A DNA stretch of 64,000 nt, from the NCBI GenBank assembly GCA_027618515.1, contig JAQCEV010000002.1:17029-81028 (forward strand). Reading direction: 5' to 3'. The notes below the pieces were generated by a model. It was not told where the DNA came from, made no database searches, and was given only the letters and a program-made list of their open reading frames with translations. The DNA is from Chloroflexota bacterium. GTDB taxonomy: Bacteria > Chloroflexota > Dehalococcoidia > Lucifugimonadales > Australimonadaceae. Positions 11,771 to 29,670 of this stretch are shown here, piece after piece (within the stretch, counting starts at the first letter, position 1; every line of letters begins with the position of its first letter). A program made the translations under genes and the position numbers.

Positions 11771-11804
11771 CGAATTCCCCCTATTCCAACAATACGAGCC
11801 CGGA

Positions 11805-12458: not shown

Positions 12459-12694
12459 CTCCTTTTGCGTTGAAAGCCCGGTAATCATTCACGGGCCGCG
12501 ATCTATTTCGCAGTTAGCGTGGTCCGAATGGGGCAGCTTTGCCGATCCGCTCAAACACTCAATAGGTAGCGTAGGGGCAGGGTGCCTAGGGCAACAGGAA
12601 GTGAACCCCCACGTGGCATGGTGGTTTTCTGGGGGTGATATTGGGGGGAATCCCCCATACGAAGACAAGGGGGCTTGGTCTGCACAGGGCGCTT

Positions 12695-13300: not shown

Positions 13301-13491
13301 GGTCGCAGGCCGAACGTGGCCAACCCATGGATGGTCATGACGAACGCGGCCCAAACGAGGTGGTTCATGGGATCGATGCGCCTCTAATGTGGAAGTCCCG
13401 CCCTTAGGGGTGTTGGGGACACCTAAAGGACGGGACACTCTACCATGACAGCCTTTTGGCTACCGCAAGGATGGAGGGCGCTGCGGTCGCG

Positions 13492-14181
13492 CTAGGCCGG
13501 CTGAAGTGCGGCGTTGTACATGCTGACCGCATGGGTTCGAAGGCTGATGTTGGAGGGGCCGTCATTTCCGAGCTTTGAGTAGATGTTGTGGATGTGCCGG
13601 TCTGCGGTCGCCCATTGCACGCCTAGCTCATCGGCGATGCCCATGTTGGTGAGGCCGCGGGTCATGAGTTCCAGGACATCTATTTCACGATCGGTGAGCG
13701 ATGAGAATTCGGCGCTTGAAGGACGAACAGGTGACTCCATCAGCGAGCCTATGACGCGAGGGTCGATGACCACGTTGCCTGTCCCCACTGAAAGGACGAA
13801 TTGCTCCAAGTCTTGCCCGGAGTAGATGGAGTCTTTGAGGAACAAACCGAAGCCCTTGCGAGAGGTGGAGCAGAGTCGTTGTGCGTGTGCGACTGCTTCG
13901 CCTTCGAAATCGGTGCAGAGTAGCGCGATACCGGACGGGCCACCAGCCACTGATAAAGGCTCTAGTTCTGCCGCCAGTGCGGCGGTGAGTGAGCGGCAGC
14001 CAACGAGGAGGACTCCCCCAGTGGCGGTCTGCGCGGCGCTGGCAATGTTGGCGCTGTCGAGCAAGCCGGAGGCATCCCTAAGCTCTAGAGACGCGTGATC
14101 CTCAATCTCGCGTGCGAACGCAGAGCGCATGAACGGTTGCTCTTCGAGGATGACGATTCCGAGCTTGGTTTGGGTGGCCAT
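13492..14181 (-). CDS. LuxR/NarL-family transcription regulator with a degenerate (pseudo-)receiver domain
   Basis: ORF trimmed to the ATG at 14181, preceded by AAGGAA. The C-terminal GerE HTH is LTDREIDVLELMTRGLTNMGIADELGVQWATADRHIHNIYSKLG. The N-terminal REC-like region has EE in place of the acidic DD pair and VLLVGCRS where the phospho-acceptor Asp is expected. Confidence 0.7.
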   Translation of the reverse strand: MATQTKLGIVILEEQPFMRSAFAREIEDHASLELRDASGLLDSANIASAAQTATGGVLLVGCRSLTAALAAELEPLSVAGGPSGIALLCTDFEGEAVAHAQRLCSTSRKGFGLFLKDSIYSGQDLEQFVLSVGTGNVVIDPRVIGSLMESPVRPSSAEFSSLTDREIDVLELMTRGLTNMGIADELGVQWATADRHIHNIYSKLGNDGPSNISLRTHAVSMYNAALQPA

Positions 14182-14580
14182 TGATCGGTTCCTTTGCACT
14201 ATGCCTGTGAGGTGTACACACATGACTAGGGCCAAATGTGCAGGGTGTCACGGCATAGTGTTACGTACATGAACACCAGAAAGGTGACAGAACGGGAACA
14301 GTGGTGAAACAGTTGGGGAACATCGATACCGGCCGTTAGGAGCACTCGCCCAAGCCAGCAGGGCTATCCACTTGCGGCGCTATTCGAACACGCGTACAGA
14401 GAAAAAATGGAATGCCTACCGAGAATTTCAGTCAGTCAGGCCGACGGCATCCCGGAGGTGGCCGCAAGTGCGCGGCTTTGTTCGATTGGACACCGGCGTG
14501 GGGGTGATTGTCGGCTGTGCAGAGGCGACCTCCGGCCCCCTGCCGACACCCAGGGGGAGGAGGTCAGTACGGGCGGTGGG

Positions 14581-14844
14581 CTACCAGCGGGGTCCGCGGT
14601 CCTCGCGAGGCTTGGCCTCGTTGACGTTGAGCGCACGGCCCTGGAGTTCGATCCCGTTCACGCTGCGAATGGCCTCTTGTGCGGCTGAATCGTCAGGCAT
14701 GTCCACGAAGCCGAACCCACGAGACCTGTTGGTCTCGCGATCAGTCACGACCTGGGCGCTGGTTACTTCACCGTAGGGCGCGAACGCGTCGCGAAGTTCG
14801 TTATCGCTAGTGTTGAAACTAAGGTTTCCGACGAAGATTCTCAT
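14581..14844 (-). CDS. RRM-type RNA-binding protein
   Basis: 87 aa with RNP-2 (IFVGNL) and RNP-1 (RGFGFVDM) motifs and the overall Rbp-like layout. Confidence 0.85.
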   Translation of the reverse strand: MRIFVGNLSFNTSDNELRDAFAPYGEVTSAQVVTDRETNRSRGFGFVDMPDDSAAQEAIRSVNGIELQGRALNVNEAKPREDRGPRW

Positions 14845-15115
14845 TCGGTGCTCCTATGAAAGCGTTGTATTCCCTTGAGGGAGGAAGCACCAGCTGAGAG
14901 CCTAGTGTGTCGGACCGGCGAAGCAGAGAGGTTACTCACAAAACCCTTGGGAGGCGCATCGTATCACGTCACCTGCCCGTGGGGGAGCGCTGTCTGGTGG
15001 CGGAATCTGCGCCATCAATTGCTAGCGTGACGCTAGTCGGGCATGCGGTGAGGCCTACGATAGGCCATAGATGGCCGCTCGCGAGGCAGACAAGCATGTA
15101 CAGAGCCCTCCGTCG

Positions 15116-17311
15116 CTAGGGTTCGACGAGATTCAACGTTGACCGAATCTGCCTGAGAACTGCGGCATCGTTGGTCAGCTCCAATGCTTCAAGCAGATCA
15201 GCGCGAGCTTCGCCATGTTGTCCCCGTGCGAGATACGACTTGGCCCGCAGGTGCAACACTACGGCCGCCCCGGCGGTGCCACGTGCGGCGGCAAATGCCT
15301 CGGTCAGGACAGGAATCGCATCGGCTGGTCTACCAACTCGAAATAGCGCTGCGCCAAGGGCGCGCTTGGCCTGCCATCGATCTGGCAGGAGGGTCACGGT
15401 GCGTTGGAACGCTTCGATCGCTTCACCAGATGACGTGCCCATCAATTCCGATCGCATGAGGAGTTCCACCCCCAGCAAGGCATTGGTGCTGGCATCGTAT
15501 GGGTTCACAGCGACAGCTTCGCGGAGCAACGCTACGGTGGATTCTGTGATCTGGAGCCGGGCGTCTAGGCTGATCCCTGAAATACGCGTTACGGTCAGCA
15601 TGTTCACAACAGAAGCGCGGTACGCATCTACGCTGGGCGCTCGCTCGACCGCATCGAGCAGCAGATCGAACGCCCGTGCATCGTCGCCAAGGGCGAGGGA
15701 GTCTTGCGCCCGGTTCGCGTTGAGGTCGGCGAGGACTGGCCGGATGGCGCTTGTCCATACCAAGCTCGCGAGAATCCCTGCTCCGGCCAGCCCGACCGCT
15801 AACGCAAGTGCGATGGCTAGGACCGACCCGCGCGTCGGCTGGACTCGTGAGAGTATCTTGGGCGCACCGATTGCGATCAGGACGCCAAGGATCGCCCAGT
15901 GAACGAGGGAATCCGACACCTGTGCGACGCCTCCCATCTGTTCGACCGCTCTGCCGGTGAGAGCGGCAAACAACCCAGCGAGAAGCAATCGCTGCGGCCA
16001 GTCGCTCCGGGGACTTCCACGGAGGAGCAACCATCCGCACGCGGCCAGTGGCAACAGCAACACAGCGGAGGACAGCAGCAGCCCCAACAATCCGAGTTCC
16101 ACCCACGAGTGGACGAACCAATTGTGAGCGTTCTTGGTGAGGATGAGGCTGTCTGATGGCTCGTGGGTGTCGCCCAGTGGGTAGACGTAGACGAAGGAGT
16201 CAGGGCCGTAGCCAAGAGTGTGAATGACGACGTTCGTAGGTGTTGTTTGATCCGGGGCGAACCACGGGCGATCCAGCGAGATGTCTATTGCATCACGCCA
16301 GATATTCAGGCGACCGCTGATTCCGTTAGCCGTGCTGCCAGGCACCGAGCCCGCACGGTCCAACGTGGTACCTAGCGCCCATGAGTGGCTCCCAGGTAGC
16401 TGTATTACGGACAGCAGAACTAGCGTGAGCACAGTCGCCCCGGCCAACGTTGCGGCGTAACGTCGTCGCAGTGCAGGTGGTAGCAGCAGAGCAGCGGCCA
16501 CGACAAAAATCACCGTTGCGACTGCCGCGCCCACCCACGGGCCACGAGCGAGGGTGAGAGCCAGCGCAGTGCTGGGGATGGCCAGCCCTACCGCGGCGAG
16601 CGGCACGCCTAGGCGGGCGCTCCGACCCTGGACGATACCCACGCATACATACATCGTGATAGGGAGTCCCATCACGAGGAAAGCTCCGAAGAAGATGGGG
16701 TTGCCGAATGATCCGACGACGCGGGAGGCGTTCAAGGCATCTAGCCCCCAGGGAGCAACGCCGACCGTCTGCGCGATCCCGTAGAGTGACGTCAGTACGG
16801 TCGCGGTAGCGATCGCCCTTAGGAGACGGTCGATGGTTGATGGCGTTCGAGCGCGGTAGGCGATGGCGAGGAACACGACCACGACGGATGCAAAACTGAT
16901 CAGCGAATAGCCATCGCGCCCCTCTTCGAAGCCACGTGTTGCGACGGCGTCGAACGGCGAGAGCACCGCCGACGTCGCAACGACCGTGAGTAGTCCGATC
17001 GCTAGGAGAATCACCCCGCGGGGAGGATAGCTCGCCAGCCAAGCCCGGAGCCGGGCCCGCCAGGCGCCGACTCGAAGGGAAGGCTCAGACGCGAGGGCCA
17101 GAGCCATGTCGGTCAGAGCCATTCCAGCTATGGCCGCCGCCAAGACTCGCATGACAGCGACCTTCGCTACGTCGGACACGGTAAACCAAGAGGGGGGGCC
17201 AAATGTCAGAGGAACCAGAACGATAGCCGCTAACCACGACTCCTCGATAGCGCGGCCGAGGATCCGACGCGAATGCACTAGGCGGTCTCTCTGGCTGATC
17301 TCAGCGGTCAT
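15116..17311 (-). CDS. Polytopic membrane protein with O-antigen ligase/polymerase (Wzy_C-like) domain and C-terminal TPR repeats
   Basis: 731 aa with many hydrophobic helices and the ...NAHNWFVHSWVELGLLGLLL motif typical of O-antigen ligase-like proteins. The C-terminal ~200 aa show TPR-like periodicity (..AL.LGDDARAFDLLLDAVERAP...). Confidence 0.65.
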   Translation of the reverse strand: MTAEISQRDRLVHSRRILGRAIEESWLAAIVLVPLTFGPPSWFTVSDVAKVAVMRVLAAAIAGMALTDMALALASEPSLRVGAWRARLRAWLASYPPRGVILLAIGLLTVVATSAVLSPFDAVATRGFEEGRDGYSLISFASVVVVFLAIAYRARTPSTIDRLLRAIATATVLTSLYGIAQTVGVAPWGLDALNASRVVGSFGNPIFFGAFLVMGLPITMYVCVGIVQGRSARLGVPLAAVGLAIPSTALALTLARGPWVGAAVATVIFVVAAALLLPPALRRRYAATLAGATVLTLVLLSVIQLPGSHSWALGTTLDRAGSVPGSTANGISGRLNIWRDAIDISLDRPWFAPDQTTPTNVVIHTLGYGPDSFVYVYPLGDTHEPSDSLILTKNAHNWFVHSWVELGLLGLLLSSAVLLLPLAACGWLLLRGSPRSDWPQRLLLAGLFAALTGRAVEQMGGVAQVSDSLVHWAILGVLIAIGAPKILSRVQPTRGSVLAIALALAVGLAGAGILASLVWTSAIRPVLADLNANRAQDSLALGDDARAFDLLLDAVERAPSVDAYRASVVNMLTVTRISGISLDARLQITESTVALLREAVAVNPYDASTNALLGVELLMRSELMGTSSGEAIEAFQRTVTLLPDRWQAKRALGAALFRVGRPADAIPVLTEAFAAARGTAGAAVVLHLRAKSYLARGQHGEARADLLEALELTNDAAVLRQIRSTLNLVEP

Positions 17312-17687
17312 CGTCGCCTCGCCTGAAGCGCCGTAGGCGGGTGAAAGCGATTGCGCATCCTAGCGAAGGCGCGGTCGCTCCTCGTATCCGCGTAAATCAT
17401 GGGCACCACTATCTGTGAGATTCTTCATGGCATTCAACCATGTTCACGGGAACTCAGCGGCTATCGAGGTCACGAGAATTCGCGGATTCAGCGCACAGCT
17501 ACGCGATTCGATCTCTGGACAGGGCAGTTTCGGAGGCGCTTCACCGGATGACAGCGCGATGTGGATCGGGAATCCAGCATGGGGCGCGACGAACGACTCG
17601 ATGCCAAGCCCGCTCGCTCGCAGCGATCATTAGTCGTTACTGGGGCTACGCAGTCGGCGGCACCGGGGCACGCATGTTGGGCTAGCG

Positions 17688-17721
17688 AAACGCCCCATGA
17701 CCATTCGGCCATGGGGCGTTT
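17688..17721 (-). terminator. Strong hairpin downstream of the UbiD operon
   Basis: AAACGCCCCATG-(10 nt)-CATGGGGCGTTT forms a perfect 12-bp stem. A second perfect hairpin, CTCTGGATC-A-GATCCAGAG, lies at 17748-17766 just after the UbiD stop. Confidence 0.5.
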
Positions 17722-17774
17722 GCAGGACAGGACTCGGGAGGAGTGAGCTCTGGATCAGATCCAGAGTGGGGGAC

Positions 17775-19247
17775 CTAGGACAGACCGTATTCCTTCCAGC
17801 GGGACGCTACCCGGGCCATGAGATCCATGCTGGGTTTCGCGATGGGCGGCAGCGGGTGGTTGTACTTCTTGAAGCCGAAGGTGGCGTCGATGCCCATTCC
17901 GTGGGTTGGGGGGATGAACTCGACCGTGCCTGGGAATGGAATCGCCTCCGGGTACTCAGCGCCGATCCACATGTGGTCTTCCGGGGTAACTGACGAGACG
18001 ATCCGCCAGAGAACGTCATTCCAGTCACGGACGTCGCAGTCCTCGTCGACGACGATGACCCAGCGATAGCGCATGTGTTCGTAGGCTGCGTCGATGATCT
18101 GCTTGGGTTGCTCAACAGCGGTGATTTGGGCGCGAATGATCAGGAATCCGGATCGTCCCGCATCAGGGAAGAACACTTCTTTGATGTTCGTGTAGCCGGA
18201 CTTGCTGACAAGCGTGTTGAGCAATGTGTTGGACCGCATCAGGGGCCGTGGGTAGTCTTCGATGCGACCACACGTGAGGCCGAATGAGACGGGGTTGCTG
18301 CGGTGGGTGATGGCTGTGATCTTCACCATGAATGACAGGGGACACTGGTTGTAGAACCCGGTCGATTCCCCGTGAGGGCCGTCATTCACGCGCTCGAATG
18401 GGACGACTTCGCCCTCAAGGATGATCTCGGCGTTCGCAGGAACCATCAGGTCGTTGGTCTCGCACTTCACGAGGTCGACGGGACGTCCAGCCCATGCGCC
18501 TGCAGCTTCGTACTCCATGTAGCCGTTTTCGTCCGCAGGGATGGCCGTGCCAGCCGACAGGGTCAGCAGTGGGTCCATCCCCAAGACGATGGCGCATGGT
18601 GTCGGGAGGCCGTTCTTTTCGTTGTCCAAGATGTGAGCGGCGCCGTTGCGGTCGCCGATCCCACCATAGCCGGAACCGAGGGGGGCATCAGCGCCAACTT
18701 CCCAGTTGCCCATGATTTCGACGGTGGTCGTGTTTTTGTCGAGGATCATGGAACGGTACTGGCCCATGTTCAGGTTCCCGTTCTTGGGGTCACGGGTGAC
18801 GAATCCGGCGGTCGTCGAGATGTATCTCCCGCCGTCGAGCTCATGCCACTTGGGCGTAGGGAAGATATCTAGGTCGACGTCCTCGCCGAGGATCTTGACG
18901 TCCTTCACGGGGCCAGTGGGAACCTCGGTGGATTTCAGCCTGTTCTGCATCCCATCCTGGATGATGTCGCGCAAGGATTCCCAGTTCGGATCGCCGTTGA
19001 GGGCGACCCCCAGTTGATCCTCGCGGTACATCACGTTCGCGACGAAAGGCATTCCGGGGTAATCCTTCACGTTCTCGAACCAGAGGCCTGGGCCATCCTT
19101 GACCAGGGATCGATAGGCTATGCCGCCGATCTCCTCGTCCCAATCGACCTCCGTGCTAACGCGCTTCAACATCCCCTGATCTTCCAGGAGTTTGAGGTAA
19201 CCGCGGAGGTCATCGTAGCCAACTGTCTTCCGTATCTCGCTTGTCAT
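17775..19247 (-). CDS. UbiD-family prenyl-FMN-dependent (de)carboxylase, apparently intact
   Basis: ORF 17775-19379 trimmed to the ATG at 19247, preceded by AGGAGA. It aligns along its full length with the UbiD layout: LRGYLKLLEDQG.L, WFENVKDYPG, FPTPKWHELDGGRY, the catalytic loop ERVNDGPHGESTGFY, and the C-terminus ...ARVASRWKEYGLS. Confidence 0.85.
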   Translation of the reverse strand: MTSEIRKTVGYDDLRGYLKLLEDQGMLKRVSTEVDWDEEIGGIAYRSLVKDGPGLWFENVKDYPGMPFVANVMYREDQLGVALNGDPNWESLRDIIQDGMQNRLKSTEVPTGPVKDVKILGEDVDLDIFPTPKWHELDGGRYISTTAGFVTRDPKNGNLNMGQYRSMILDKNTTTVEIMGNWEVGADAPLGSGYGGIGDRNGAAHILDNEKNGLPTPCAIVLGMDPLLTLSAGTAIPADENGYMEYEAAGAWAGRPVDLVKCETNDLMVPANAEIILEGEVVPFERVNDGPHGESTGFYNQCPLSFMVKITAITHRSNPVSFGLTCGRIEDYPRPLMRSNTLLNTLVSKSGYTNIKEVFFPDAGRSGFLIIRAQITAVEQPKQIIDAAYEHMRYRWVIVVDEDCDVRDWNDVLWRIVSSVTPEDHMWIGAEYPEAIPFPGTVEFIPPTHGMGIDATFGFKKYNHPLPPIAKPSMDLMARVASRWKEYGLS

Positions 19248-19284
19248 GCCTGTCTCCTGTAAGTCTCTTTCGGCGTCACTATCA

Positions 19285-20085
19285 CTAGTCGAGGCCGTAG
19301 AGGTATTTGATGAAATCGCGGCCTTCACTCGTGAATGATTCCGCGCGTTTGAGTAGAGGTTCAAGGTCGGCGGGGTCACCGTAGCCGGCGTTCAAGCCAG
19401 CAACGGCAGCTTTCTCTACGAATTCAGGGCTGGCGACGGTTGCCTTGAAGGCCGCGCGCCACGCCTGGAGGATTTCCGGTGGTGTGTCATCGGACAGGAT
19501 GAACATGCGGATGAAGTCTTCCGCAGCTTCACCAACCTGGAACGCGTCCTGCTGCTCCTGTGTTGCGCTGACGATATCAAAGATGTTCGGCGGCTGCGTG
19601 GCTCCGAGGGCGTCAAGCCATTCCTGGGAGATCGGGATGTCCCACCAGTAGAGCGGCACGATGCTGTCGTTCTCAAGCCACTCAGGGAACAGGCCCTGAA
19701 CCAGCGAGAAGTCGCATGCGGGAGTTCCATCGAGCTCGCCGCGATCAACAGCCGCCTGCATCTCCGAGGTACCGCCGTAGCCGGTGATCACTTTCATGGG
19801 GCCACCGAGGTATACACGCTCGGGGTTGTGGGGGTCGACGGTCACGCATTGGACCTTCCCCGGGCCTTTACGTCCGCGATTGGGACGCTGCCACGTCTCG
19901 CCAGCGTCGTCGCTGGTCCATACCCCGTCACCTCGCGTTCCCGCGAATGCGCGTCCAGACGGCGACACGGCGACGTCAGTGACGGACCATCCCGCCAAGC
20001 TGGACGAAGTTACGTCCCATTTCCCTGCGTCGCTCCGTACCGTAACGACGCCTGCGTCCGTTGCGAGCAACAAGTCTTCCGCCAT
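19285..20085 (-). CDS. Chimeric ORF: BNR/Asp-box beta-propeller N-terminal fragment fused to the C-terminal half of a TctC-like solute-binding protein
   Basis: ORF trimmed to the ATG at 20085, preceded by AGGAGA. Residues 1-95 (LLLATDAGV...GDGVWTSDDAGETW...VTVDPHNPERVYLGG) look like the first blades of a BNR/YVTN propeller. From residue 96 (PMKVITGYGGTSEMQAAVDRGELDG...DDTPPEILQAWRAAFKATVASPEFVEKAAVAGL) it looks like the second lobe of a tripartite-tricarboxylate-type binding protein. No signal peptide is present. Confidence 0.5.
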   Translation of the reverse strand: MAEDLLLATDAGVVTVRSDAGKWDVTSSSLAGWSVTDVAVSPSGRAFAGTRGDGVWTSDDAGETWQRPNRGRKGPGKVQCVTVDPHNPERVYLGGPMKVITGYGGTSEMQAAVDRGELDGTPACDFSLVQGLFPEWLENDSIVPLYWWDIPISQEWLDALGATQPPNIFDIVSATQEQQDAFQVGEAAEDFIRMFILSDDTPPEILQAWRAAFKATVASPEFVEKAAVAGLNAGYGDPADLEPLLKRAESFTSEGRDFIKYLYGLD

Positions 20086-20304
20086 GTGCGATCTCCTCAT
20101 CGGTTGCGAGTGGGTTTGCGGACGGGTGATATACCACATCGCCCGCATAGTCAATTATTTCGTAGCTGCTTGCGCCTGAACACGAATGCTTTTGCGCGAG
20201 CGGCGTGGAGGACTTACGAAGTTGACGCGGTATACCTGCAAAGATAGTCTGCATCCGCTTCTAGCAGTAGAAGCGCACCCCCGAAGCTTCCGAAGGAGGA
20301 TCGC

Positions 20305-21648
20305 TTGGCTGACGCACAACACCGGGTCGCTTACACCGACATGCGTGAGTTCATCGAATTGCTTGATGCGAAGGGGCTCGTTCACCGGGTGACCGCCGAG
20401 GTCGATCCCGTACACGAGCTTGGCGCCATCACGGCCAGGTCATTGGATCGCCACGGGCCCGCGATCATCTTCGAGAACGTCAAGGGCTACCCGAACAAGC
20501 CGATGGTGGTCAATCTGCTGTCGACGCCGGAACAGGTGGCGTTGGCTTTCGGAACTGAGCCTACAGAAGAGCAGGTGCAGGGGGCCGTGGTGCGAGGAAT
20601 GGACCATCGCCTCCCGTCCTTGGAGGTTGAGACCGGCCCGTGTAAGGACGTCATCTTGATGGGTGATGACGCCGACCTCAACTTCATTCCCACGCCTGTG
20701 TGGCATGAGCACGATGGCGGTCAGTTCCTGGCAACCACGGCAGGAATCGTCACCCGCGACCCGCTGCCGGGGATACTGAACGTCGGGCTTTACCGGACGA
20801 TGATCAAGGACAAGCACACGATGAGCTTGGCCGGCGGCATCCGAGGACGCGCCTCGTCGACCGGCCCCGGCGGCGGTGACCACATCTTGGACAACGAGGC
20901 TGTGGGCAAGCCGACCCCCATCGCGGTCATCATGGGCACCGACCCGCTGGTGACACTCGCTGCGGGGAGCCCGGTGCGGCCCAACGGCGGCGAGCTTGAA
21001 GGCTCCATGGAGTACGAAGCGGCAGACGGCTGGCGCGGTGAGGGCACCAAGCTCGTGAAGTGCGAAACCAGCGACCTGCTGGTGCCGGCGGACGCCGAGG
21101 TGGTGATCGAGGGCTTCGTCGTTCCTAACGAACGCACGAGCGAGGGGCCATGGAAGGCCGATAAGGTAGCGGCCGAGGGTGTTGTGCTGGATCGTACCGC
21201 CGTCTACGAGCTGGGTTTGAAAGTAGAAAACATTACTCCTGTGAGTCTCGAAGACAAAACGCGTTTGGTTGCGTTGAAACAGGTTGTCACCCAACTAACT
21301 ACCAAAGCTCTTTTAGACGCCTCGGAGAGTTCAGCTCAAGAGGAAGTGACCACGATGGTAGCTAAAATGCTCATGGCATGGGGGAGCGGGAATACGGGCC
21401 TCGAAAACGCGTTGGCGAGCCGATTCGACACCGCCCCACTGAAGAACGGCCTCTGTCCCAAGTGCAGCCAAACGCTCGATTGGACACCTGAGACAAAGGC
21501 CATTGACACCAAAACGATGGCGATGGTAACGGTTTATCACAGCGCGTCGCTCAAATTCAAGGACAACGAGTTCCCACCCGTCAACAAGGTGAGCCGTGAG
21601 CTGACCGCGAAGGTTGCGGCCCGCTGGGACGAGTTGGGATTGCCGTAG
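20305..21648 (+). CDS. UbiD-family paralog with its catalytic loop and C-terminal domain replaced by unrelated sequence
   Basis: The TTG start follows GAAGGAGGA. Residues 1-283 are collinear with the UbiD at 17775-19247 up to ...VVPNERTSEGPW. The last ~25 aa (FPPVNKVSRELTAKVAARWDELGLP) match the UbiD C-terminus. The ~139 codons between them (21154-21570) do not match. Confidence 0.7.
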   Translation: MADAQHRVAYTDMREFIELLDAKGLVHRVTAEVDPVHELGAITARSLDRHGPAIIFENVKGYPNKPMVVNLLSTPEQVALAFGTEPTEEQVQGAVVRGMDHRLPSLEVETGPCKDVILMGDDADLNFIPTPVWHEHDGGQFLATTAGIVTRDPLPGILNVGLYRTMIKDKHTMSLAGGIRGRASSTGPGGGDHILDNEAVGKPTPIAVIMGTDPLVTLAAGSPVRPNGGELEGSMEYEAADGWRGEGTKLVKCETSDLLVPADAEVVIEGFVVPNERTSEGPWKADKVAAEGVVLDRTAVYELGLKVENITPVSLEDKTRLVALKQVVTQLTTKALLDASESSAQEEVTTMVAKMLMAWGSGNTGLENALASRFDTAPLKNGLCPKCSQTLDWTPETKAIDTKTMAMVTVYHSASLKFKDNEFPPVNKVSRELTAKVAARWDELGLP

Positions 21649-21659
21649 GGCAGGGAGTC

Positions 21660-22088
21660 ATGTCAACAGATCTAGGCAAACAACTTCCAGACGACCTGTT
21701 TCATCAGCTTTCAGAAGTAGATCAGTCAGAGCAGGGAGGCAAAGCCATCCCCATCTGCACGGTGGACGCCGACGGTTGGGCACACCCTGCTTTGCTAAGC
21801 TACGGTGAAGTGGGCGCGCGAGACCGGTCTACGCTCAGGGTCATGACGTTCGATGGCACCAAAACCACCGAGAACCTTCGGGGGAACGGTCGGTTGACGA
21901 TACTGTTCATCGACGACACGATGACGTATTACGTGAAAGGCGTAGCTAAGGAGATCCCCGCTGCTCGAGTGGGCGGCGGGCCAGGGCACGCCTACATGGA
22001 TATCGCGATCTCTCACGTGCTCTCGGATGCTCCAGGCGCGGGGGAAGAGGGAGCGAGGATCACCTCGGGAATCATGTTCAAGTGGTAG
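21660..22088 (+). CDS. Pyridoxamine 5'-phosphate oxidase-like FMN-binding split-barrel protein
   Basis: 142 aa. The pattern ...ICTVDADGWAHPALLSYGEV......LRVMTFDGTKTTENLRGNGRLTILFID...YYVKG fits PNPOx-like family proteins. It lies between the UbiD-like gene and ubiX. Confidence 0.55.
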   Translation: MSTDLGKQLPDDLFHQLSEVDQSEQGGKAIPICTVDADGWAHPALLSYGEVGARDRSTLRVMTFDGTKTTENLRGNGRLTILFIDDTMTYYVKGVAKEIPAARVGGGPGHAYMDIAISHVLSDAPGAGEEGARITSGIMFKW

Positions 22089-22092
22089 CAGA

Positions 22093-22674
22093 ATGCGAAA
22101 AATAATCGTCGGCATCAGCGGCTCATCGTCGCCGATCTACGGGATACAGACGCTCAAGACACTCAGTGCGATGCCGGATATCGAGACCCACCTGATCTTG
22201 TCGGAAGGTGCACACCTCTCGATCGCCTACGAGGCTCCAGAATGGCCTATCGCCGACATCGAGGCCATGGCCGACGTGGTGCACGACCCACGCAACATGG
22301 CAGCGGCGGTTTCAAGTGGCTCGTTCAAGACTGACGGTATGGTCATCGTGCCATGCTCGATGAAGAGCCTCGCTGCGTTGGCGCACTCGTACAACAGTGA
22401 CCTGATCGTCCGTGCGGCTGACGTATGCCTGAAGGAGCGCCGACGGCTTGTGGTGGTCGCCAGGGAGACGCCGTTGCACCGAGGCCACCTAGTCAACATG
22501 CTCGCCGTTACGGACATGGGAGGCATCATCTTGCCGCCGATCCCCGGTTTCTACTCACAGCCCAAGACGATCATGGACCTGGTCCATCACACCGTGGGTA
22601 AGATACTCGATCTTTTGGACATCGAGAACGACGAGTTCAAACGGTGGACGGGCGAGCCTCTATCGGACGAGTGA
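22093..22674 (+). CDS. ubiX: Flavin prenyltransferase UbiX
   Basis: ORF trimmed to the ATG at 22093. It carries MRKIIVGISGSSSPIYGI..LK.L, MVIVPCSMKSLAALAHSYNSDLIVRAADVCLKERRRLVVVARETPLH and GGIILPPIPGFY, all hallmark UbiX/Pad1 motifs. Confidence 0.9.
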   Translation: MRKIIVGISGSSSPIYGIQTLKTLSAMPDIETHLILSEGAHLSIAYEAPEWPIADIEAMADVVHDPRNMAAAVSSGSFKTDGMVIVPCSMKSLAALAHSYNSDLIVRAADVCLKERRRLVVVARETPLHRGHLVNMLAVTDMGGIILPPIPGFYSQPKTIMDLVHHTVGKILDLLDIENDEFKRWTGEPLSDE

Positions 22675-22809
22675 GTCCGGTGAGAGCGGGCCTAGATCTC
22701 TCTTGGAAACAAGCGCTGATAAGTAAACTGACCAGTCCGTTTAGATGTGATTTAGAGGCAACCGCATCTCAAGCAGCGGCAATCTCAACGTTCAGGTAGG
22801 TAATAGAGT

Positions 22810-22884
22810 TGGAGCGGGAGACCGGATTCGAACCGGCGACAACCTGCTTGGAAGGCAGGAGCTCTACCACTGAGCTACTCCCGC
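22810..22884 (-). tRNA. tRNA-Gly (anticodon UCC), CCA encoded
   Basis: The minus strand reads GCGGGAG-TA-GCTC-AGTGGTA-GAGC-T-CCTGC-CTTCCAA-GCAGG-TTGTC-GCCGG-TTCGAAT-CCGGT-CTCCCGC-T-CCA. It folds into a full cloverleaf with all four stems paired, and the anticodon loop carries TCC. Confidence 0.9.
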
Positions 22885-22896
22885 TCGAGGGAGCGA

Positions 22897-23112
22897 TTAG
22901 GCCGCTGACGCGGCTTTGGGGCCAACGGTCGCGAGCAGGGCTCCCGACGCAAAGACTATCTCATTCACGGCATCATCAAACGCCGTCGTTAGGGCTGCCG
23001 AGGGCTTACGGATGCCGGTGATCTTCCTGACGAATTGCACTGCGGCCGCGCGGATCTCTGCTTCCGCAACGATCTCTTCTTCAGTTCTCAGGATACGGAT
23101 GCTACGGCACAC
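22897..23112 (-). CDS. DUF2277-family small protein
   Basis: 71 aa. MCRSIRIL...EIRAAAVQFVRKITGIRKPSAA...AFDDAVNEI matches my recollection of the conserved DUF2277 N-terminus (MCRNI..L....EIRAAALQ.VRK.SG..KPS). Confidence 0.6.
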   Translation of the reverse strand: MCRSIRILRTEEEIVAEAEIRAAAVQFVRKITGIRKPSAALTTAFDDAVNEIVFASGALLATVGPKAASAA

Positions 23113-23133
23113 GGCACACCCCCGCCTGGCAGT

Positions 23134-23595
23134 CTAGTCAGCTACTTCGAACACGGCATCGATGGACACTACTCCATCGAATGGGTTGCGTCCAACGCCC
23201 ATGGAGGAGCGAGCGTGCTTGCCTGCTTCGCCGTAAAGCTCCACGAGCAAGTCCGAGCACCCGTTGACCACTTGGGCGTAGCCGTTGAAGTCCGGCGTTG
23301 CCTGAACCATCCCGAAGATCTTGACCACGTGGGTGACCTTGTCGAGGTCGCCGACGATGCTCTTCACGTTGGTGAGCATCCGTAGGCACGTGCGTCGCGC
23401 GGCTTCGTAGGCGTCTTCGATGGTGCAGTCGGCACCCATCACGCCTGTGATGTTGGAGTCGTTGGAGCGGGGGCCAACTGCGGACGTAAAGACCAGATTG
23501 CCTGCGCGGTAGCCGACCAGGTAGCTGCCTGAAGGGGCAACGTGCTCCGGTAGGGTCAGTCCAAGTTCGGCTAGTTTGTCTTCAACTTTTGACAT
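23134..23595 (-). CDS. RidA/YjgF/UK114-family protein
   Basis: 153 aa with the typical RidA-family layout: ...LGLTLPE....G.Y......GNLVFTSA...G.....DAYEAARRTCLRMLTNVKS..GDLDKVTHVVKIFGMV....F......V.NG.S.L....G..G.HARS..GV...P....V.ID. Confidence 0.8.
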   Translation of the reverse strand: MSKVEDKLAELGLTLPEHVAPSGSYLVGYRAGNLVFTSAVGPRSNDSNITGVMGADCTIEDAYEAARRTCLRMLTNVKSIVGDLDKVTHVVKIFGMVQATPDFNGYAQVVNGCSDLLVELYGEAGKHARSSMGVGRNPFDGVVSIDAVFEVAD

Positions 23596-23680
23596 GTCAC
23601 ACTCGTTGCACTGGCGTTGGTGTAGCGTTCGAGGGCCGTAGGGAGCCCTCTGCGCTTTGGGGCATTATATGGGTGTCCGG

Positions 23681-24964
23681 CTAGGGAGGCGAGGGGTCGT
23701 TAGCTGCGATCGGACTAGCTTTGGTTTCCTTGCCAAACAAGAAGACCGTAGTCGCCCCTACGATGAGCATGCCTGAGACCACAGTGAAGGCGAGACCAAA
23801 GCTGTAGCGGTCAGCCAAGGTGCCGATGAACAACGGGCCGATGATCTGGCCCAGATTCATGAATAGTCCCCACACACCTAGGAAAGCCCCTCGCTTTTCC
23901 TCCGGCGCAAGGTCCATAGCGTAGACCTGCATGGTGCCCCAGCCGAATGCCTCGGAGAGTCCGAATGCCATCACCGCTACGACGGCGACCATGAATGTAG
24001 CGCCGAGGGTCATGGCATAGACCGCCGATGCGGTGACGAGCAACCCAAATAACAGGGATCGCTTCCGACCATAGCGGTCGGTAATGATGCCTGCGGGCAT
24101 AGTAGCGACGAGGGCGACTCCGCCGGCGATGGCGAGGAGCAGGCCTATCTGAACCTCGCTCAGGCCTGCTACTTCTTTGAAATGGGGTGGGAATAGCGTG
24201 CGGAACACACCAGTTCCACCGCCCACCATGCTGACGGTGAACGTGCCAATGGCCAAGGCTAGGAACGCTCGCGTTCTGAACATGGCAATATCGATACGCC
24301 GCTTGGTGCCAGGTGCTCTCGCGGGCTTGTCAGCGCGCTCGCGTCGCGTTTCCTTTATCCACAGGACGGTGACGATGATGACGATGACTTTGGTGGTCGC
24401 GATGAAAAAGAAGATGTACTTGAGGCCGAATACCACGCCGATGAGGCCAGCAGCAGCAGGGCCCAAGAGCAGGCCGATCCGCGCCGAAATCTCCCGCACT
24501 GCGACGACGCGACCGCGTGTCTCCAGACGGGTGGAGTCTGCCATGAGCACGTTCGCGCTGGTCATCCAGACTGAGATTCCGATGCCGCCGACGATCTCAA
24601 GCAATAGGAACGGCAGATAGCTGTCCACGAAGAAATCGCTGGTCATCGCGATGACGTGGAGCAGTGATCCGATGATGACGAATGGCTTGCGCCCAAAACG
24701 GTCGGTCAGGTAGCCGGTGAGGGGGCCTGTTACGAGTCGAGGCATGGCGCTGACGGATGAGATCACCGCTACGAGCAGGAACGTGCCACCGGTCTCATAA
24801 GCGAACAGGGGGCGGACGAGCCAGAGTCCACCGGTGCCGAACGCCCAGAAGAAGTACATGAGGAAGACCGGAAACGTTTCCGGTCTGGTGAGGTCTTGGA
24901 TGAAGCGGCTTTTTGATTTCAAATAGTGGCCAAATAGGCGAGGGGCGCGGTCGGATGCTACCAC
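23681..24964 (-). CDS. MFS transporter (12-TMS type)
   Basis: 427 aa and highly hydrophobic, with MFS signature loops (GYLTDRFGRKP, ITDRYGRKRS). The GTG start is preceded by GAGGGA. Confidence 0.8.
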   Translation of the reverse strand: MVASDRAPRLFGHYLKSKSRFIQDLTRPETFPVFLMYFFWAFGTGGLWLVRPLFAYETGGTFLLVAVISSVSAMPRLVTGPLTGYLTDRFGRKPFVIIGSLLHVIAMTSDFFVDSYLPFLLLEIVGGIGISVWMTSANVLMADSTRLETRGRVVAVREISARIGLLLGPAAAGLIGVVFGLKYIFFFIATTKVIVIIVTVLWIKETRRERADKPARAPGTKRRIDIAMFRTRAFLALAIGTFTVSMVGGGTGVFRTLFPPHFKEVAGLSEVQIGLLLAIAGGVALVATMPAGIITDRYGRKRSLLFGLLVTASAVYAMTLGATFMVAVVAVMAFGLSEAFGWGTMQVYAMDLAPEEKRGAFLGVWGLFMNLGQIIGPLFIGTLADRYSFGLAFTVVSGMLIVGATTVFLFGKETKASPIAANDPSPP

Positions 24965-25004
24965 CTTTGTCCCTCATGCTTTAGGGCCAGAATAGAATGA
25001 CCTC

Positions 25005-25790
25005 ATGCCGACGCTAGATCCAGCGCCTAAATGGGAGCGCTTCTACCCTGACCGCGTGGTCGGGGCACATGTGCTCGTGTTCGACGAGGTGGACTCGACC
25101 ATGGACGTTGCGCGGGAGAGCGCACGCGCAGGCGCTCCCCATGGGGCGGTCGTGCGCGCGGCAACCCAGCGCTCTGGACGTGGCCGGTTCGCGCGGCGAT
25201 GGGAGAGCGGGCCAGGTGATTCGCTGCTGACGTCTGTGGTGTTACGCATGCCTCCGGTGGACGTGGGCGCGCCGTTGTCGGTGGCAGGGTCGCTCGCGGT
25301 CCATGACGCGGTGGCGGAGCTACTCGCCGTACCCTGCGGGATCAAGTGGCCGAACGACGTGCAGGTGGGCGGCAAGAAGATCGCGGGCGTGCTCGTTGAG
25401 TCGCAGATCACCACCGACGGTACCGGGTTCGCCATTCTGGGCATCGGGCTCAACGTCAATCTGACCCCAGACGCATTTGCGGGGATCGGCGAGACGGCAA
25501 CAAGCTTGGCGATCGAGAGCGGGGGGCCGATGGATCTGGATCACGTTGAAGAGACGTTGCTCAGGCACCTCGACAAGGCGCTAGCGGATCTTGTTGTGGG
25601 AACCGCGTTGATCGTCGAACGGTGGCGCACACACCTCTCAACGTTGGGGACGCAGATCGCCGTACACATGAGAGACGGCGTCGTCGAGGGGGAGGCGGTG
25701 GACGTTGATGAGCAGGGAGCGTTGCTACTTCGCGATTCCCGAGGTACTGTCCATCGGCTGCTTGAAGGAGACGTCACTCTTCGGGCCTAG
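25005..25790 (+). CDS. birA: Biotin--[acetyl-CoA-carboxylase] ligase (BirA, group I without HTH)
   Basis: It has the GRGRFARRWESGPG motif (GRGR.GR.W.S..G) and the KWPNDV..GGKKIAGVLVE motif. Confidence 0.8.
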   Translation: MPTLDPAPKWERFYPDRVVGAHVLVFDEVDSTMDVARESARAGAPHGAVVRAATQRSGRGRFARRWESGPGDSLLTSVVLRMPPVDVGAPLSVAGSLAVHDAVAELLAVPCGIKWPNDVQVGGKKIAGVLVESQITTDGTGFAILGIGLNVNLTPDAFAGIGETATSLAIESGGPMDLDHVEETLLRHLDKALADLVVGTALIVERWRTHLSTLGTQIAVHMRDGVVEGEAVDVDEQGALLLRDSRGTVHRLLEGDVTLRA

Positions 25791-25815
25791 GCGTATCGTC
25801 TGCTAAAATCACGCT

Positions 25816-25838
25816 TGCCGCTGTTCATGAGCGGCAAT
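25816..25838 (+). terminator. Small hairpin after birA
   Basis: TTGCCGCT-GTTCATG-AGCGGCAA forms an 8-bp stem followed by TTGG. The T-tract is weak. Confidence 0.4.
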
Positions 25839-25878
25839 TGGCTAGTTCCAACGCTCAATAATTGACTGGTGTACCCCT

Positions 25879-27297
25879 GTGAAGACCGCGCGCGACTATT
25901 CGCCAGACCTATGGCGTCGGCTCGTCATCATCCACAAACGCCTCGAGAGTTTCCTCGATCGCCGTGGCTACGACGTGGCAACGACACCGATCCTCGAAAG
26001 CACCGATCTGTTCCTCCGAAAGTCGGGGGGAGAGCTCGCGTCCCAGATGTACAGCTTCACCGATCCGTCGGGGCGGCAAGTGAGTCTCCGACCGGAGCTC
26101 ACGTCATCCGTGGTGCGGCAGTTCATCGACGGCAATCTCAAGGGACCCATGCCGCAGCGTTGGCAGTACTACGGAACGGTTTTCCGGTACGAGGCTAGCG
26201 CTGAGGGCGTGGATGCTCCTGAGGACTTGGAGTTTCAGCAACTGGGCGCCGAGATTCTTGGCTCCGCCTCAGAGTTCGCTGACGCTGAAGTGCTGGCGAC
26301 CGCAGTGCAGGGCCTAACGACACTCGGGGTCACCGGGCACAAACTGCGTGTCGGCCACATGGGCGTCGTGAACGCGATGCTTGAGGCGTTGGGACTGTCT
26401 GAGCGAGCACGAGTATTCGTGGTGAACAGCCTTGATGACCTGCGCGCTGGTGAAGCTGGGGTGGAGATCGTTCGGCAGCGGGCGACCGACCTGGGATTGC
26501 TGGGCGAAGAACGAACCAAGGCGCTTTCGGAGTTGGCGCGGAGCATGGCCCCCGAAGACGCAGAAGGCATGGTCGAGGGGTTCTTGGCACCGGGCGTCAT
26601 GGGGCTTTCAGGGCAACGCACACCGGAAGAGGTATTCAGGCGTTACCTACGGAAGCTCAAGGAAGCCGGGGTGCCAGAACTCGTCGATGCAGCGATCCGC
26701 TTCTCCGCCGAACTGGTGGCGCTTAGTGGTCCGGCCGATGAAGTCCGCAAGAAGCTGGGCGACCTAATCAAACGTTTCGACCTGGAAGCCGCCGTGCTCG
26801 CGCCCATCGACAAACTGCTGAAGGCGTTGGGCCAGTACGACCTCAAAGGCGTGCCGGTGATCCTTGATCTAGGCATGGCCCGCGGGATCGCTTACTACAC
26901 GGGTGTCGTCTTCGATATCGACCACGCCAAGGTCAAGGGACGGCCCAGTCTTGGCGGCGGTGGGCGGTACGACGGTCTCGTGCGAGCGCTGGGCGCCAAG
27001 AAGGACGTACCCGCGCTCGGATTCGCCTATGCGGTGGATCGGATAGCGGAGGTTCTGCCGTCGGACTACGGCAGCGACCAGGACACGGGGGCCGTTCGCG
27101 TACTGGTGACGGCACAAGAATCTCAACGCAGCCAGGCGGTTGCGACCGCAGAACGACTGCGGGCGCAGGGCATCCCTGCTGAATTAGACCTGAGTGACCG
27201 CGGCGACGCCGAGGTGGCGAAGTACGCGGAGCAACGCGGTATCCAGACAGTGATGAGAGTGGGGGCAGATGGCGGAGTCTCTGAGACAGCAATCTAA
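25879..27297 (+). CDS. hisZ: HisRS-like protein, probable ATP phosphoribosyltransferase regulatory subunit (HisZ-like) with a retained anticodon-binding-like C-terminal domain
   Basis: It has the class II aaRS fold pattern (LRPELTSSVVRQF, GGGGRYDGLV). The motif 2 region reads FRYEASAEGVDAPEDLEFQQLGAEILG, lacking the PQ.GR.REF of catalytic HisRS. It lies directly upstream of hisG and starts at a GTG. Confidence 0.65.
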   Translation: MKTARDYSPDLWRRLVIIHKRLESFLDRRGYDVATTPILESTDLFLRKSGGELASQMYSFTDPSGRQVSLRPELTSSVVRQFIDGNLKGPMPQRWQYYGTVFRYEASAEGVDAPEDLEFQQLGAEILGSASEFADAEVLATAVQGLTTLGVTGHKLRVGHMGVVNAMLEALGLSERARVFVVNSLDDLRAGEAGVEIVRQRATDLGLLGEERTKALSELARSMAPEDAEGMVEGFLAPGVMGLSGQRTPEEVFRRYLRKLKEAGVPELVDAAIRFSAELVALSGPADEVRKKLGDLIKRFDLEAAVLAPIDKLLKALGQYDLKGVPVILDLGMARGIAYYTGVVFDIDHAKVKGRPSLGGGGRYDGLVRALGAKKDVPALGFAYAVDRIAEVLPSDYGSDQDTGAVRVLVTAQESQRSQAVATAERLRAQGIPAELDLSDRGDAEVAKYAEQRGIQTVMRVGADGGVSETAI

Positions 27298-28312
27298 CGG
27301 GGACCGCCTGAATGGCGGTCTACGCCTGGCGATCCCCAGTGACGGGGAGATGTTCGAGCCGACCCAACGCTTCTTGCAGCGTTGCGGCATGGGTATCAAT
27401 CGGCCTAGCCCGCGCCGCTACACGGCGTCGGTTCCGTCCGTACAAGGACTGGAGGTCATCTTCCAGCGCACGGCGGACATCACCTCGAAAGTCGAGGACG
27501 GCAACGCCGACCTGGGCATGGTGGGCCGCGACCGATTCCAAGAGAGCCGGATAGAGGGCGGCGACACGATTCTCATCATTCCCGAACTTGGGTTCGGCGG
27601 ATGTGAGTTGGTGGTGGCGACCCCGGACGCTTGGATGGACGTCGATTCCATGGCTGACCTGGCCGACCTAGCGGTCGAATTCAGGGAGAGCGGTCGCGAG
27701 TTACGCGTGGCAACCAAGTACCCGCGGCTAGTCAGTCGTTTCTTTTTCAGTCACGGCGTCAACTACTTCTCCATCGCTCCGGTTACGGGCACCCTTGAGG
27801 CGTCTGTGGCTATGGGCTACGCAGATCTGATCGTCGATATCACAGCCTCAGGCGTGACGCTTCGCGAGAACAGGCTCAAGCGCTTGGAGGATGGCACGGT
27901 GTTGGCCTCCGAAGGCGCGCTGATCGGCAACAAGAAATTGTTGCGGGAGAACCCCGAGCGGCTGGAAGGTGCTCGAGAACTCATCGAACGCATCGAGGCG
28001 CACCAGAATGCTGGTGGCTTCCAGCGCATCTCGGCCAACATCGAAGGTGATTCGGAAGAATCGGTCGCCGCAAAGGTGCTGGAGCGCCCGGAGTGCGCTG
28101 GCCTTCAGGGGCCGACGATCGCCCGAGTATTCACGCCTGACGGCCGCAAGTGGTACTCCGTCACCGTGTTCGTCGACAAGGTGTCCCTCACCAGTATCGT
28201 GGACTTCTTCCGCGCGATTGGTGGAACATCGGTCACCGTGTCCGAAGCGAGCTATGTGTTTGGCCAGGAGAGCACCAGCTACGCGAGGCTGTTGGCCGAG
28301 CTCGGGCTCTAG
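27269..28312 (+). CDS. hisG: ATP phosphoribosyltransferase (long form with C-terminal regulatory domain)
   Basis: It has LRLAIPSDGEM.E....FL..CG, TADITSKVEDGNADLGMVGRD and ADLIVDITASGVTLRENRLK, plus a C-terminal HisG_C-like segment. The start is uncertain because the ATG at 27269 overlaps the hisZ-like end by 29 nt. Confidence 0.8.
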   Translation: MAESLRQQSNGDRLNGGLRLAIPSDGEMFEPTQRFLQRCGMGINRPSPRRYTASVPSVQGLEVIFQRTADITSKVEDGNADLGMVGRDRFQESRIEGGDTILIIPELGFGGCELVVATPDAWMDVDSMADLADLAVEFRESGRELRVATKYPRLVSRFFFSHGVNYFSIAPVTGTLEASVAMGYADLIVDITASGVTLRENRLKRLEDGTVLASEGALIGNKKLLRENPERLEGARELIERIEAHQNAGGFQRISANIEGDSEESVAAKVLERPECAGLQGPTIARVFTPDGRKWYSVTVFVDKVSLTSIVDFFRAIGGTSVTVSEASYVFGQESTSYARLLAELGL

Positions 28313-28314
28313 CC

Positions 28315-29670
28315 ATGCGTATCGTCGAAGGACTCCAAGCGGGGCTGGCGTTGCTAGCTCGTACGCCTGGATACGACGAACCAGAGCTTTCCCCCACCGC
28401 AACGAAGCGCACCGCTGACCTGTTCGGAGAGCCGCTGACGGCCACCCAGGCCGTGCGGCGGATACTTGATGACGTTCGCCTTCGTGGTGATGATGGTGTC
28501 CGAGAGTACGCACGCCGGATCGACCGCGTTGAGTTGGAGGAGCTAGAGATACCCAGGGATCGCTGGCGTGAAGCGCTGGCGTCGATCCCAGTCGAGCTCG
28601 CAGATGCACTACGGGTCGCTGCTGACCGCGTTCGCGACTACCACGAGAAATGCATGCCGCTGGAATGGCGCGACGACGAAGCTGGCTACGGTCAGCGGCT
28701 CGTGCCGATCGAGCGAGTGGGCCTCTATGTGCCAGGTGGCATCGCCGAATATCCGTCGACGGTCCTGATGTCGGCCATCCCCGCGAAAGTCGCTGGTGTG
28801 CCGGAAGTCATCCTCTGCACACCCTCACCAAGCCCCGCCACTTTGGCCGCTGCCGAGATCGCAGACGTAGATCGCCTATTTGAGATCGGCGGAGCACAGG
28901 CGATAGGCGCGATGGCGTTTGGGACAAGCACTGTGCCGAAGGTCGACAAGATCTGTGGCCCTGGCAACATCTTCGTGTCCATCGCGAAACGCGAGGTGTA
29001 CGGGCACGTGGACATCGATGGGCTCTACGGCCCGACCGAGACCGTGGTCATCGCTGATGACACGGCGGATGCTTCCCTAGCGGCGGCGGATCTGCTGGCA
29101 CAAGCGGAACACGATGAGATGGCGTCACCCGTGCTCATAACCACGAGCATGGATATGGCGCAACGAGTGAGCGCAGAGGTAGATCGACAACTTGCGCTCC
29201 TCGATCGCAAGGCCGTGGCTTCTGCCGCGATAGAGGGGCAGGGGATGGCCGTGGTCGTCTCGACCGTCGAGGAAGCGATCGAACTCTCGGACGCGTTCGC
29301 GCCAGAACACCTGTGCCTGCTAGTGGAGCGCGCAGATTCCTATGTTGAGCTTGTTCACAACGCCGGCGGGATATTCGTCGGTGAGTATTCACCGGAGGTC
29401 ATGGGAGACTATGTCGCCGGCCCAAGCCACGCAATGCCGACAGCAGGGACGTCGCGGTACGCCTCCAGCCTGGGCGTGCATCATTTCCTGAAGCACGTGC
29501 CGGTGATTCGGCTCAGTACTGCGTCTATGGGCAGCCTTGGGCCTGCGGCGGCGGCTATCGCACGCGCCGAAGGCCTCACGGGGCATGCCAGGGCAGTCGA
29601 GATGCGTCTCGAAGGCGCCGGTACCGCAGTCGATAAGGATTTCTTCGCGGAGACCCCCGATGGCCAGTAG
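28315..29670 (+). CDS. hisD: Histidinol dehydrogenase
   Basis: ORF trimmed to the ATG at 28315, 2 nt after the hisG stop. It carries YVPGG.A.YPSTVLM..IPAKVAGV, GGAQAI.AMA.GT...PKVDKI.GPGN.FV and QAEHD motifs. Confidence 0.9.
   Translation: MRIVEGLQAGLALLARTPGYDEPELSPTATKRTADLFGEPLTATQAVRRILDDVRLRGDDGVREYARRIDRVELEELEIPRDRWREALASIPVELADALRVAADRVRDYHEKCMPLEWRDDEAGYGQRLVPIERVGLYVPGGIAEYPSTVLMSAIPAKVAGVPEVILCTPSPSPATLAAAEIADVDRLFEIGGAQAIGAMAFGTSTVPKVDKICGPGNIFVSIAKREVYGHVDIDGLYGPTETVVIADDTADASLAAADLLAQAEHDEMASPVLITTSMDMAQRVSAEVDRQLALLDRKAVASAAIEGQGMAVVVSTVEEAIELSDAFAPEHLCLLVERADSYVELVHNAGGIFVGEYSPEVMGDYVAGPSHAMPTAGTSRYASSLGVHHFLKHVPVIRLSTASMGSLGPAAAAIARAEGLTGHARAVEMRLEGAGTAVDKDFFAETPDGQ

Follow-up and report, generated by a model that had tools for sequence, protein, structure and literature searches.

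Most bacterial pseudogenes are recognised through frameshifts, stop codons or truncation. Here we describe a gene that has most likely become non-functional with its reading frame intact, one of two paralogs of the UbiD family in a 64-kb stretch of DNA (hereafter the window) from a metagenome-assembled genome (MAG) of a Chloroflexota bacterium. UbiD-family enzymes are (de)carboxylases dependent on prenylated flavin mononucleotide (prFMN), such as E. coli UbiD, A. niger Fdc1, AroY and VdcC; their fold is built from a prFMN-binding domain (residues 1-333 in UbiD), an oligomerisation domain (334-465) and a C-terminal helix, and the active site lies where the prFMN-binding domain meets the oligomerisation domain (PMC8379154). 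In Fdc1, Glu282 acts as the acid-base residue, E282Q being inactive and E282D active (PMC5818171). The described mechanism that comes closest to the lesion reported here is SPDIR (short-patch double illegitimate recombination), together with homology-facilitated illegitimate recombination; in Acinetobacter baylyi, SPDIR replaces a genomic stretch by ectopic DNA that has hardly any homology, or none, where it is joined, resulting in a clustered change of different length (bioRxiv 10.1101/2023.11.22.568220).

The gene is recorded as NCBI MDA0797195.1 ('MAG: UbiD family decarboxylase [Chloroflexi bacterium]'), a 447-aa protein encoded on an 89-kb contig, and is composed of the following parts (window positions; GC3, G+C content at third codon positions).

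20305-21648, plus strand: chimeric UbiD open reading frame (ORF), 447 aa, TTG start
20305-20307, plus strand: TTG start codon, derived from ATG; position 1 is T in the window and A in 9/9 intact close alleles and both outgroups
20305-21150, plus strand: retained 5' part of the UbiD gene, codons 1-282; UbiD_N with ~80% of the prFMN-binding (Rift-related) domain from its start; last residues ...NERTSEGP
21151-21539, plus strand: orphan patch of 389 bp, codons 283-412, replacing 485 bp (codons 283-444, 162 codons) of the intact allele
21214-21378, plus strand: low-GC3 core of the patch, GC3 0.455 (25/55), GC 0.455
21540-21648, plus strand: remaining 3' end of the UbiD gene, encoding the C-terminal helix (...ASLKFKDNEFPPVNKVSRELTAKVAARWDELGLP) and the stop codon

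The composition of this gene became clear from its intact form in close relatives. A whole-protein search returned P0002, a 479-aa intact UbiD that is 99% identical to the chimeric protein over residues 1-283, carries the loop ...EGPHGESTGFYGEN... and the UbiD_C domain, and matches the PDB structure of UbiD, 5m1c (E=1.5e-55); P0127, near-identical to P0002, has the same length, HGESTGFY, UbiD_C and 99% identity over residues 1-283. Among the relatives' contigs with the same gene order as the window (L002-L004), L002 was aligned with the window by blastn in three blocks (11768-19812 with L002 1-8043, 97.0% identity; 19810-21150 with 9506-10846, 97.9%; 21540-31648 with 11332-21440, 96.9%, gapless), the second of which ends with the retained 5' part of the gene and the third of which begins with the retained 3' end. 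Both junctions of the patch, 21150/21151 and 21539/21540, are thus exact and sharp, with flanks 97-98% identical, and the patch stands in for L002 10847-11331 (485 bp). The net loss is 96 bp, so that the reading frame is kept, as a prediction made earlier from the letters of the window alone (the original prediction) had stated. Since the intact allele, as P0002 or P0127, was found on at least 9 contigs representing several samples, flanked by the same genes wherever these are covered, the window allele is derived and recent; as judged from these contigs, the intact allele is ancestral and the norm. We put the probability at about 0.72 that a recent illegitimate-recombination patch inactivated one of the two UbiD paralogs, which is now decaying.

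With the patch, the gene lost a span that encodes the catalytic G-E-S-T-G-F-Y loop and the final strands of the prFMN-binding domain, as well as the hinge helix and the oligomerisation domain, and that is near-invariant in 26 homologues (HGESTGFY, ITHR, YGLIC, EDYPRQLLRS, FPEVGR, WRWIIVVDEDCNVRDW); the patch matches none of these motifs. Pfam profiles detected UbiD_N (PF20695) in the chimeric protein (residues 17-88, E=9.3e-21) and an incomplete prFMN-binding Rift-related domain (PF01977; residues 109-283, profile positions 6-168 of 206), no UbiD_C oligomerisation domain (PF20696) at E<=0.1, which the paralog has, and no family whatsoever in the middle segment. The score for the NCBIfam UbiD model TIGR00148 was 163.7 bits, below its cut-off of 244.85, although the intact paralog, at 240.6, also falls just below it. 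In BLASTP against the paralog (17775-19247), residues 2-282 aligned with 45% identity (E=3e-86) and residues 414-446 with 46% (E=7e-6), with no alignment between the two blocks, in agreement with the collinearity that had been proposed for the first 283 and the last ~25 residues. The accompanying claim that 139 codons replace ~190 holds as an in-frame, unrelated replacement and not in its size, as codons 283-412 replace 162, and the proposed end at 21570 overshoots by ~30 nt.

The loop H-G-E-S-T-G-F-Y, present in 26/26 homologues, is replaced by W-K-A-D-K-V, and hence the catalytic G-E-x-x-G-(Y/F)-Y loop is gone, as had been predicted. Regarding the Glu-Arg-Glu/Asp network, R164 and E280 are kept, whereas the acid at the position of Fdc1 Glu282 (Asp in UbiD) is gone. 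Also absent from the product are the final ~38 profile positions of the prFMN domain, the hinge and the oligomerisation domain in its entirety; the latter forms half of the active site. From these losses we infer that the chimeric product cannot be a working UbiD decarboxylase, and the gene is most likely non-functional and starting to decay. Residues 1-282, by comparison, are like those of other family members in carrying a normal N-terminal domain and most of the prFMN-binding domain, as are the kept C-terminal helix and the clustering of the gene with UbiX and a second UbiD. The structure prediction that had been suggested was carried out with AlphaFold and a 27-sequence alignment; the predicted local distance difference test score (pLDDT) was ~75-95 for residues 1-281 and 86-88 for the C-terminal helix (431-443), while residues 282-427 had no confident fold (pLDDT 22-37). 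A single-sequence model of the patch alone was uninformative (pLDDT 38).

The patch differs from its surroundings in composition and nevertheless looks like coding DNA. GC3 was 0.806 in codons 1-283 of the chimeric gene, 0.626 in codons 284-422 and 0.455 (25/55) in the core, exactly the values of the original hand count. Against a host mean GC3 of 0.71, the core falls near the 0.5th percentile of the 55-codon windows taken from the ORFs of the 64-kb window and is a genuine outlier; its synonymous-codon log-likelihood gave z=-2.95 against host genes (0.07th percentile). Codon usage in the patch as a whole deviates only mildly (z=-1.56), and GC3 over the 3' third of the patch is host-like, at 0.7-0.8. 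No stop codon occurs in the UbiD frame, whereas the other five frames contain 3-11, and only 0.18% of shuffles of the patch stay open, so that chance would not be expected to give an open frame this long; codon position 1 is 71% purine and 12% T, like real genes. The simplest reading is that a piece of some protein-coding gene was picked up in frame.

Searches for a relative or donor of the patch were negative throughout. An exhaustive phmmer/HMMER scan of 1.84 billion cluster representatives (~15 billion proteins) found no homologue; it returned just the window's own protein (P0001), matches limited to the retained C-terminal tail, and the spurious repeat protein P0122. Viral, genome and metagenome locus scans gave no genuine relative; the metagenome matches L005 and L006, considered as a donor, were 32-aa alignments seeded by 'KNGLCPKC' and antisense to the sole sizeable ORF there, and were treated as chance. 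No relative was found by phage and plasmid DNA and tblastn searches, no family by PHROGs and NCBIfam profiles, and no RNA family in the region by Rfam. A word-index protein search with the 139-aa segment had no match and also missed P0001 itself, so short-query negatives from that search need caution. By blastn, tblastn and tblastx, the patch had no match in the 64-kb window or in L002-L004; because the latter include 1465 bp that are deleted nearby in the window (see below), the patch is not derived from that DNA.

Several origins could be rejected on these data. A divergent but homologous UbiD C-terminal domain is incompatible with the lack of any UbiD_C match, the absence of the near-invariant motifs and a Smith-Waterman score against the replaced 162 aa below those of all 2000 shuffles; with no homology by profile or by pairwise alignment, the segment is unrelated, as originally claimed. 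A frameshifted or inverted remnant of the original sequence was dismissed because the other five frames are stop-rich and tblastn with the paralog finds nothing in the region. Insertion of an intein or mobile intron does not fit the loss of 485 bp of host sequence and the lack of any Pfam or Rfam match. An RNA element or mobile element was rejected as well, since Rfam was empty and no meaningful flanking repeats are present at the patch, and a GGGGCCA heptamer that recurs near two junctions was judged a coincidence of Gly-Pro codons.

Among the competing explanations, the least improbable is an intragenomic origin, in which ectopic or template-switch repair would have copied the patch from elsewhere in the same genome or in a close relative's, rather than from a foreign organism. 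The host-like GC3 of the 3' third and the only mildly atypical codon usage of the whole patch are what such a source would give, and the genome itself was searched over 64 kb. We nonetheless consider it unlikely, as the composition of the core departs strongly from that of the host, neither the window nor 21 kb of the relative contains anything like the patch, and no similar protein was found among ~15 billion, a set that holds this population's own assemblies, the window's protein having NCBI, ENA and Logan as sources.

Recombination with DNA from outside the host fits better. In the proposed course of events, double illegitimate (non-homologous) recombination would have swapped 485 bp for 389 bp of compositionally foreign, coding-like DNA; the patch being open in the UbiD frame, the allele would have kept its ORF, and decay would then have started within a locus under reduction. 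The sister strains with the intact gene and the sharp junctions favour the foreign DNA of the 'foreign cassette' proposed in the original prediction, but nothing shows a mobile cassette, and no donor was found. The event resembles SPDIR and homology-facilitated illegitimate recombination in being a patch replacement with a change of length. SPDIR patches are reportedly tens of bases long, whereas the present one measures 389 bp, and only the recipient side of the joints can be seen here; SPDIR is a candidate model for the mechanism rather than an observed one.

Signs of decay were sought in codons 1-282, where substitutions were polarised with nine intact alleles and the outgroups. In the window lineage, five non-synonymous changes (start ATG>TTG, E22A, D64N, T155P and G241D) were found along with four synonymous ones; T155 and G241 are conserved in 23/26 homologues, and the change from ATG to TTG is a derived weakening of the start. 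The ratios of non-synonymous to synonymous changes were as follows.

Window lineage: 5:4
Sister lineage: 0:4
Polymorphism within the set of intact alleles: 14:87
Neighbouring genes, changes derived in the window: 4:15

The ratio in the window lineage was significantly higher than that among intact alleles (5:4 vs 14:87, Fisher p=0.007).

Damage to the locus is not limited to the patch, as can be seen from the neighbouring features.

17775-19247, minus strand: intact UbiD paralog, 490 aa; Pfam UbiD_N, UbiD and UbiD_C
19285-20085, minus strand: fusion ORF at a second lesion, 266 aa, in frame; BNR-repeat residues 1-93 plus TctC-like residues 222-396
21660-22088, plus strand: intact gene of a PNPOx-like flavin-binding protein; Pfam PNPOx_N and DUF447_N, gapless alignment with relatives
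22093-22674, plus strand: intact gene of a UbiX-type flavin prenyltransferase; Pfam Flavoprotein PF02441, E=7e-39

The second lesion, 1.3 kb upstream of the patch, is a 1465-bp deletion (L002 8044-9508) with its junction at 19812/19813 (window 19812 = L002 8043, window 19813 = L002 9509) and a 3-bp GTA microhomology; the two parts of the fusion ORF are 97% and 99% identical to their parent genes in protein alignment. Up to 19812, two contigs, L019 (GCA_027625325.1) and L017 (SAMN03444961), match the window at 99.7-99.97% identity, and they then continue into the undeleted gene. By these contigs, the deletion is polymorphic in the population; since it is absent from the near-identical L017 and L019, patch and deletion are separate events, and the patch is probably the older. 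The intact paralog, on the other hand, has the same protein sequence (100% identity) in strains that carry the lesions and in strains that do not, and its gene differs from that of L002 by 0 non-synonymous and 17 synonymous changes. The PNPOx-like gene begins 11 nt after the stop codon of the chimeric ORF, and the UbiX-type gene is called as 193 aa in L002, L003 and L007. UbiX is encoded downstream of the patch, and the intact paralog is in the same position relative to the in-frame deletion nearby; it might be, though this is speculative, that in-frame lesions persist here since polar effects on downstream genes are avoided.

A few further observations concern the surroundings of the gene and its homologues. 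A tRNA-Gly gene (anticodon TCC; 22810-22884, minus strand) lies directly downstream of UbiX, and two adjacent genes at 10712-11770 and 11805-12488 (both minus strand), also present in L002, encode archaeal-type flagellin domains (PF01917, E=1e-16 and 8e-22). In relatives at a greater distance, on the contigs of P0004, an 80%-identical homologue (L022 and L023), the two UbiD genes flank a Rieske/LigXa-like oxygenase, a TctA transporter and three genes without Pfam match, and an amidohydrolase_2 gene then follows; this gene content suggests that the cluster serves aromatic-acid uptake and catabolism. In P0009 (449 aa, on a 3.49-Mb contig), a member of the same UbiD clade, an Arg/Gly/Pro-rich, seemingly out-of-frame stretch replaces much of the C-terminal domain before the UbiD frame briefly resumes, which reflects either indel sequencing errors or a second, independent gene disruption.

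Several points weigh against inactivation by an illegitimate-recombination patch followed by decay. The patch has no stop and joins the UbiD frame on either side, which a coding fragment captured at random would do with a chance of ~1 in 18, and the neighbouring deletion is in frame too (1 in 3); the two together could hint at selection on the product instead of chance or polarity avoidance. The allele occurs in at least 2 genotypes distinguished by single-nucleotide polymorphisms (SNPs), so it was not quickly purged. With no donor found, 'foreign' is a statement about composition, in which the core alone is clearly atypical. The non-synonymous excess, finally, is counted from 9 substitutions and is not significant when compared with the neighbouring genes (5:4 vs 4:15, p=0.10), so the decay signal is suggestive and not conclusive.

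An alternative slightly more doubtful than an intragenomic source is that the chimera is a functional new protein, as had originally been raised under the name of a novel UbiD-fold fusion, in which the prFMN-binding module of UbiD is joined to a new helical, Cys-containing module; such a protein might carry the cofactor, have a regulatory role or act as a non-catalytic partner to the intact paralog. It would account for the frame held over 130 codons with a coding-like signature, the ribosome-binding site kept upstream of the ORF, the confidently modelled C-terminal helix and the right junction found in two SNP-distinct genotypes; moreover, two UbiD paralogs within one cluster could form a hetero-complex, some homologues being named 'phenylphosphate carboxylase subunit beta'. 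However, the module was found in no other protein by the exhaustive search and the allele is limited to one population, and close relatives, in which the same architecture was to be sought, all carry the canonical 479-aa UbiD. In addition, the prFMN domain is itself truncated, the oligomerisation domain needed for any UbiD assembly is absent, and the patch was modelled with low confidence both in the protein and alone. The relaxed constraint with its weakened start codon and replacements at conserved positions, the non-synonymous nature of the sole SNP seen in the patch (M407T, below) and the damage to adjacent genes also speak against it. Slightly less probable still, in our view, is the proposition that selection keeps the chimeric ORF, either for a new protein that binds prFMN and carries a helical, Cys-containing orphan module, or through polarity-constrained decay that spares UbiX and the intact paralog; the frame kept across the patch, the in-frame deletion beside it and the two genotypes are what it can draw on.

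The chimera was reproduced in assemblies other than that of the window. A Logan contig from run SRR2027816 is 100% identical to window 19612-21940 and spans all three junctions, and scaffold_626 in ENA (ERZ23495042, sample SAMN03444948) has 1 mismatch over window 15285-24085. In NCBI GCA_027625325.1, contig JAQBWR010000180.1 (L011) begins at window 21505, 35 nt within the patch as counted to its end, and crosses the right junction; it carries 2 SNPs in 3.6 kb, one of which lies in the patch and is non-synonymous (21524 T>C, M407T). Contigs of this second assembly and sample stop near the lesions, L011 breaking inside the patch and both L017 and L019 ending at L002 coordinate 8534, within the region deleted in the window; these breaks may reflect low coverage, mixed strains or another rearrangement. 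The literature had nothing direct on the accessions of the run and the samples; we take PRJNA279271 to be the BioProject of the window's samples. Papers on that project describe metagenomes from a Caspian Sea depth profile (PMC9726936), and, going by the sample labels and this description, the samples behind the window are probably from there.

An artefact, in which the patch and its junctions stem from mis-assembly or chimeric library molecules and are present in no cell, is very improbable: the window does come from a MAG, its full-length copies may all stem from one sequencing run or sample, the patch is unlike its surroundings in composition and the contigs of a fourth assembly break near both lesions, yet three assembly pipelines agree across both junctions, that fourth, SNP-distinct assembly has the right junction, a chimeric fragment would have to have been joined twice, independently, over only 389 bp, and nothing resembling a vector, plasmid or phage (a spike-in, for instance) was found. 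A de Bruijn-graph mis-join would presumably have nothing to act on, as no sequence is common to the patch and the intact allele at the junctions. At the level of assemblies, with the left junction in two others and the right in three, the evidence thus speaks against the assembly chimera that had been listed as a candidate and for a real allele.

The locus may also be set beside two other classes of known systems. Polymorphic toxins such as Rhs and CdiA exchange C-terminal cassettes, and share with the chimeric gene a conserved N-terminal part followed by an unrelated segment of lower GC. In the present case, however, all related loci have the canonical UbiD sequence at the patch site and no alternative cassettes, no immunity-like gene has been added downstream, the original 3' end is kept, and UbiD is a cytoplasmic enzyme family and not a toxin. 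The resemblance to pseudogenes that keep an ORF is closer, as the derived allele is found in a single lineage, residues and domains that are essential have gone, non-synonymous changes are in excess, the start is weak and neighbouring genes are deleted. What distinguishes it from usual pseudogenes is the intact frame, and since the 96-bp difference and the open UbiD frame leave nothing to stop them, gene callers still report a 447-aa 'UbiD family decarboxylase'.

Illegitimate replacement of a patch with subsequent decay is nothing out of the ordinary; the disrupted mosaic allele that results is well resolved here and has the value of a case study without opening a new question. It provides a clean natural case in which a patch of several hundred bases was replaced without flanking homology, caught early, while the intact allele is still circulating in sister strains; if the polarity reading is true, it would also be a natural example of polarity-constrained gene decay. 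An open frame and two N-terminal Pfam domains suffice to hide such a pseudogene. The 'UbiD family decarboxylase' of this public genome is very probably dead, and metabolic reconstructions should count one UbiD, not two.

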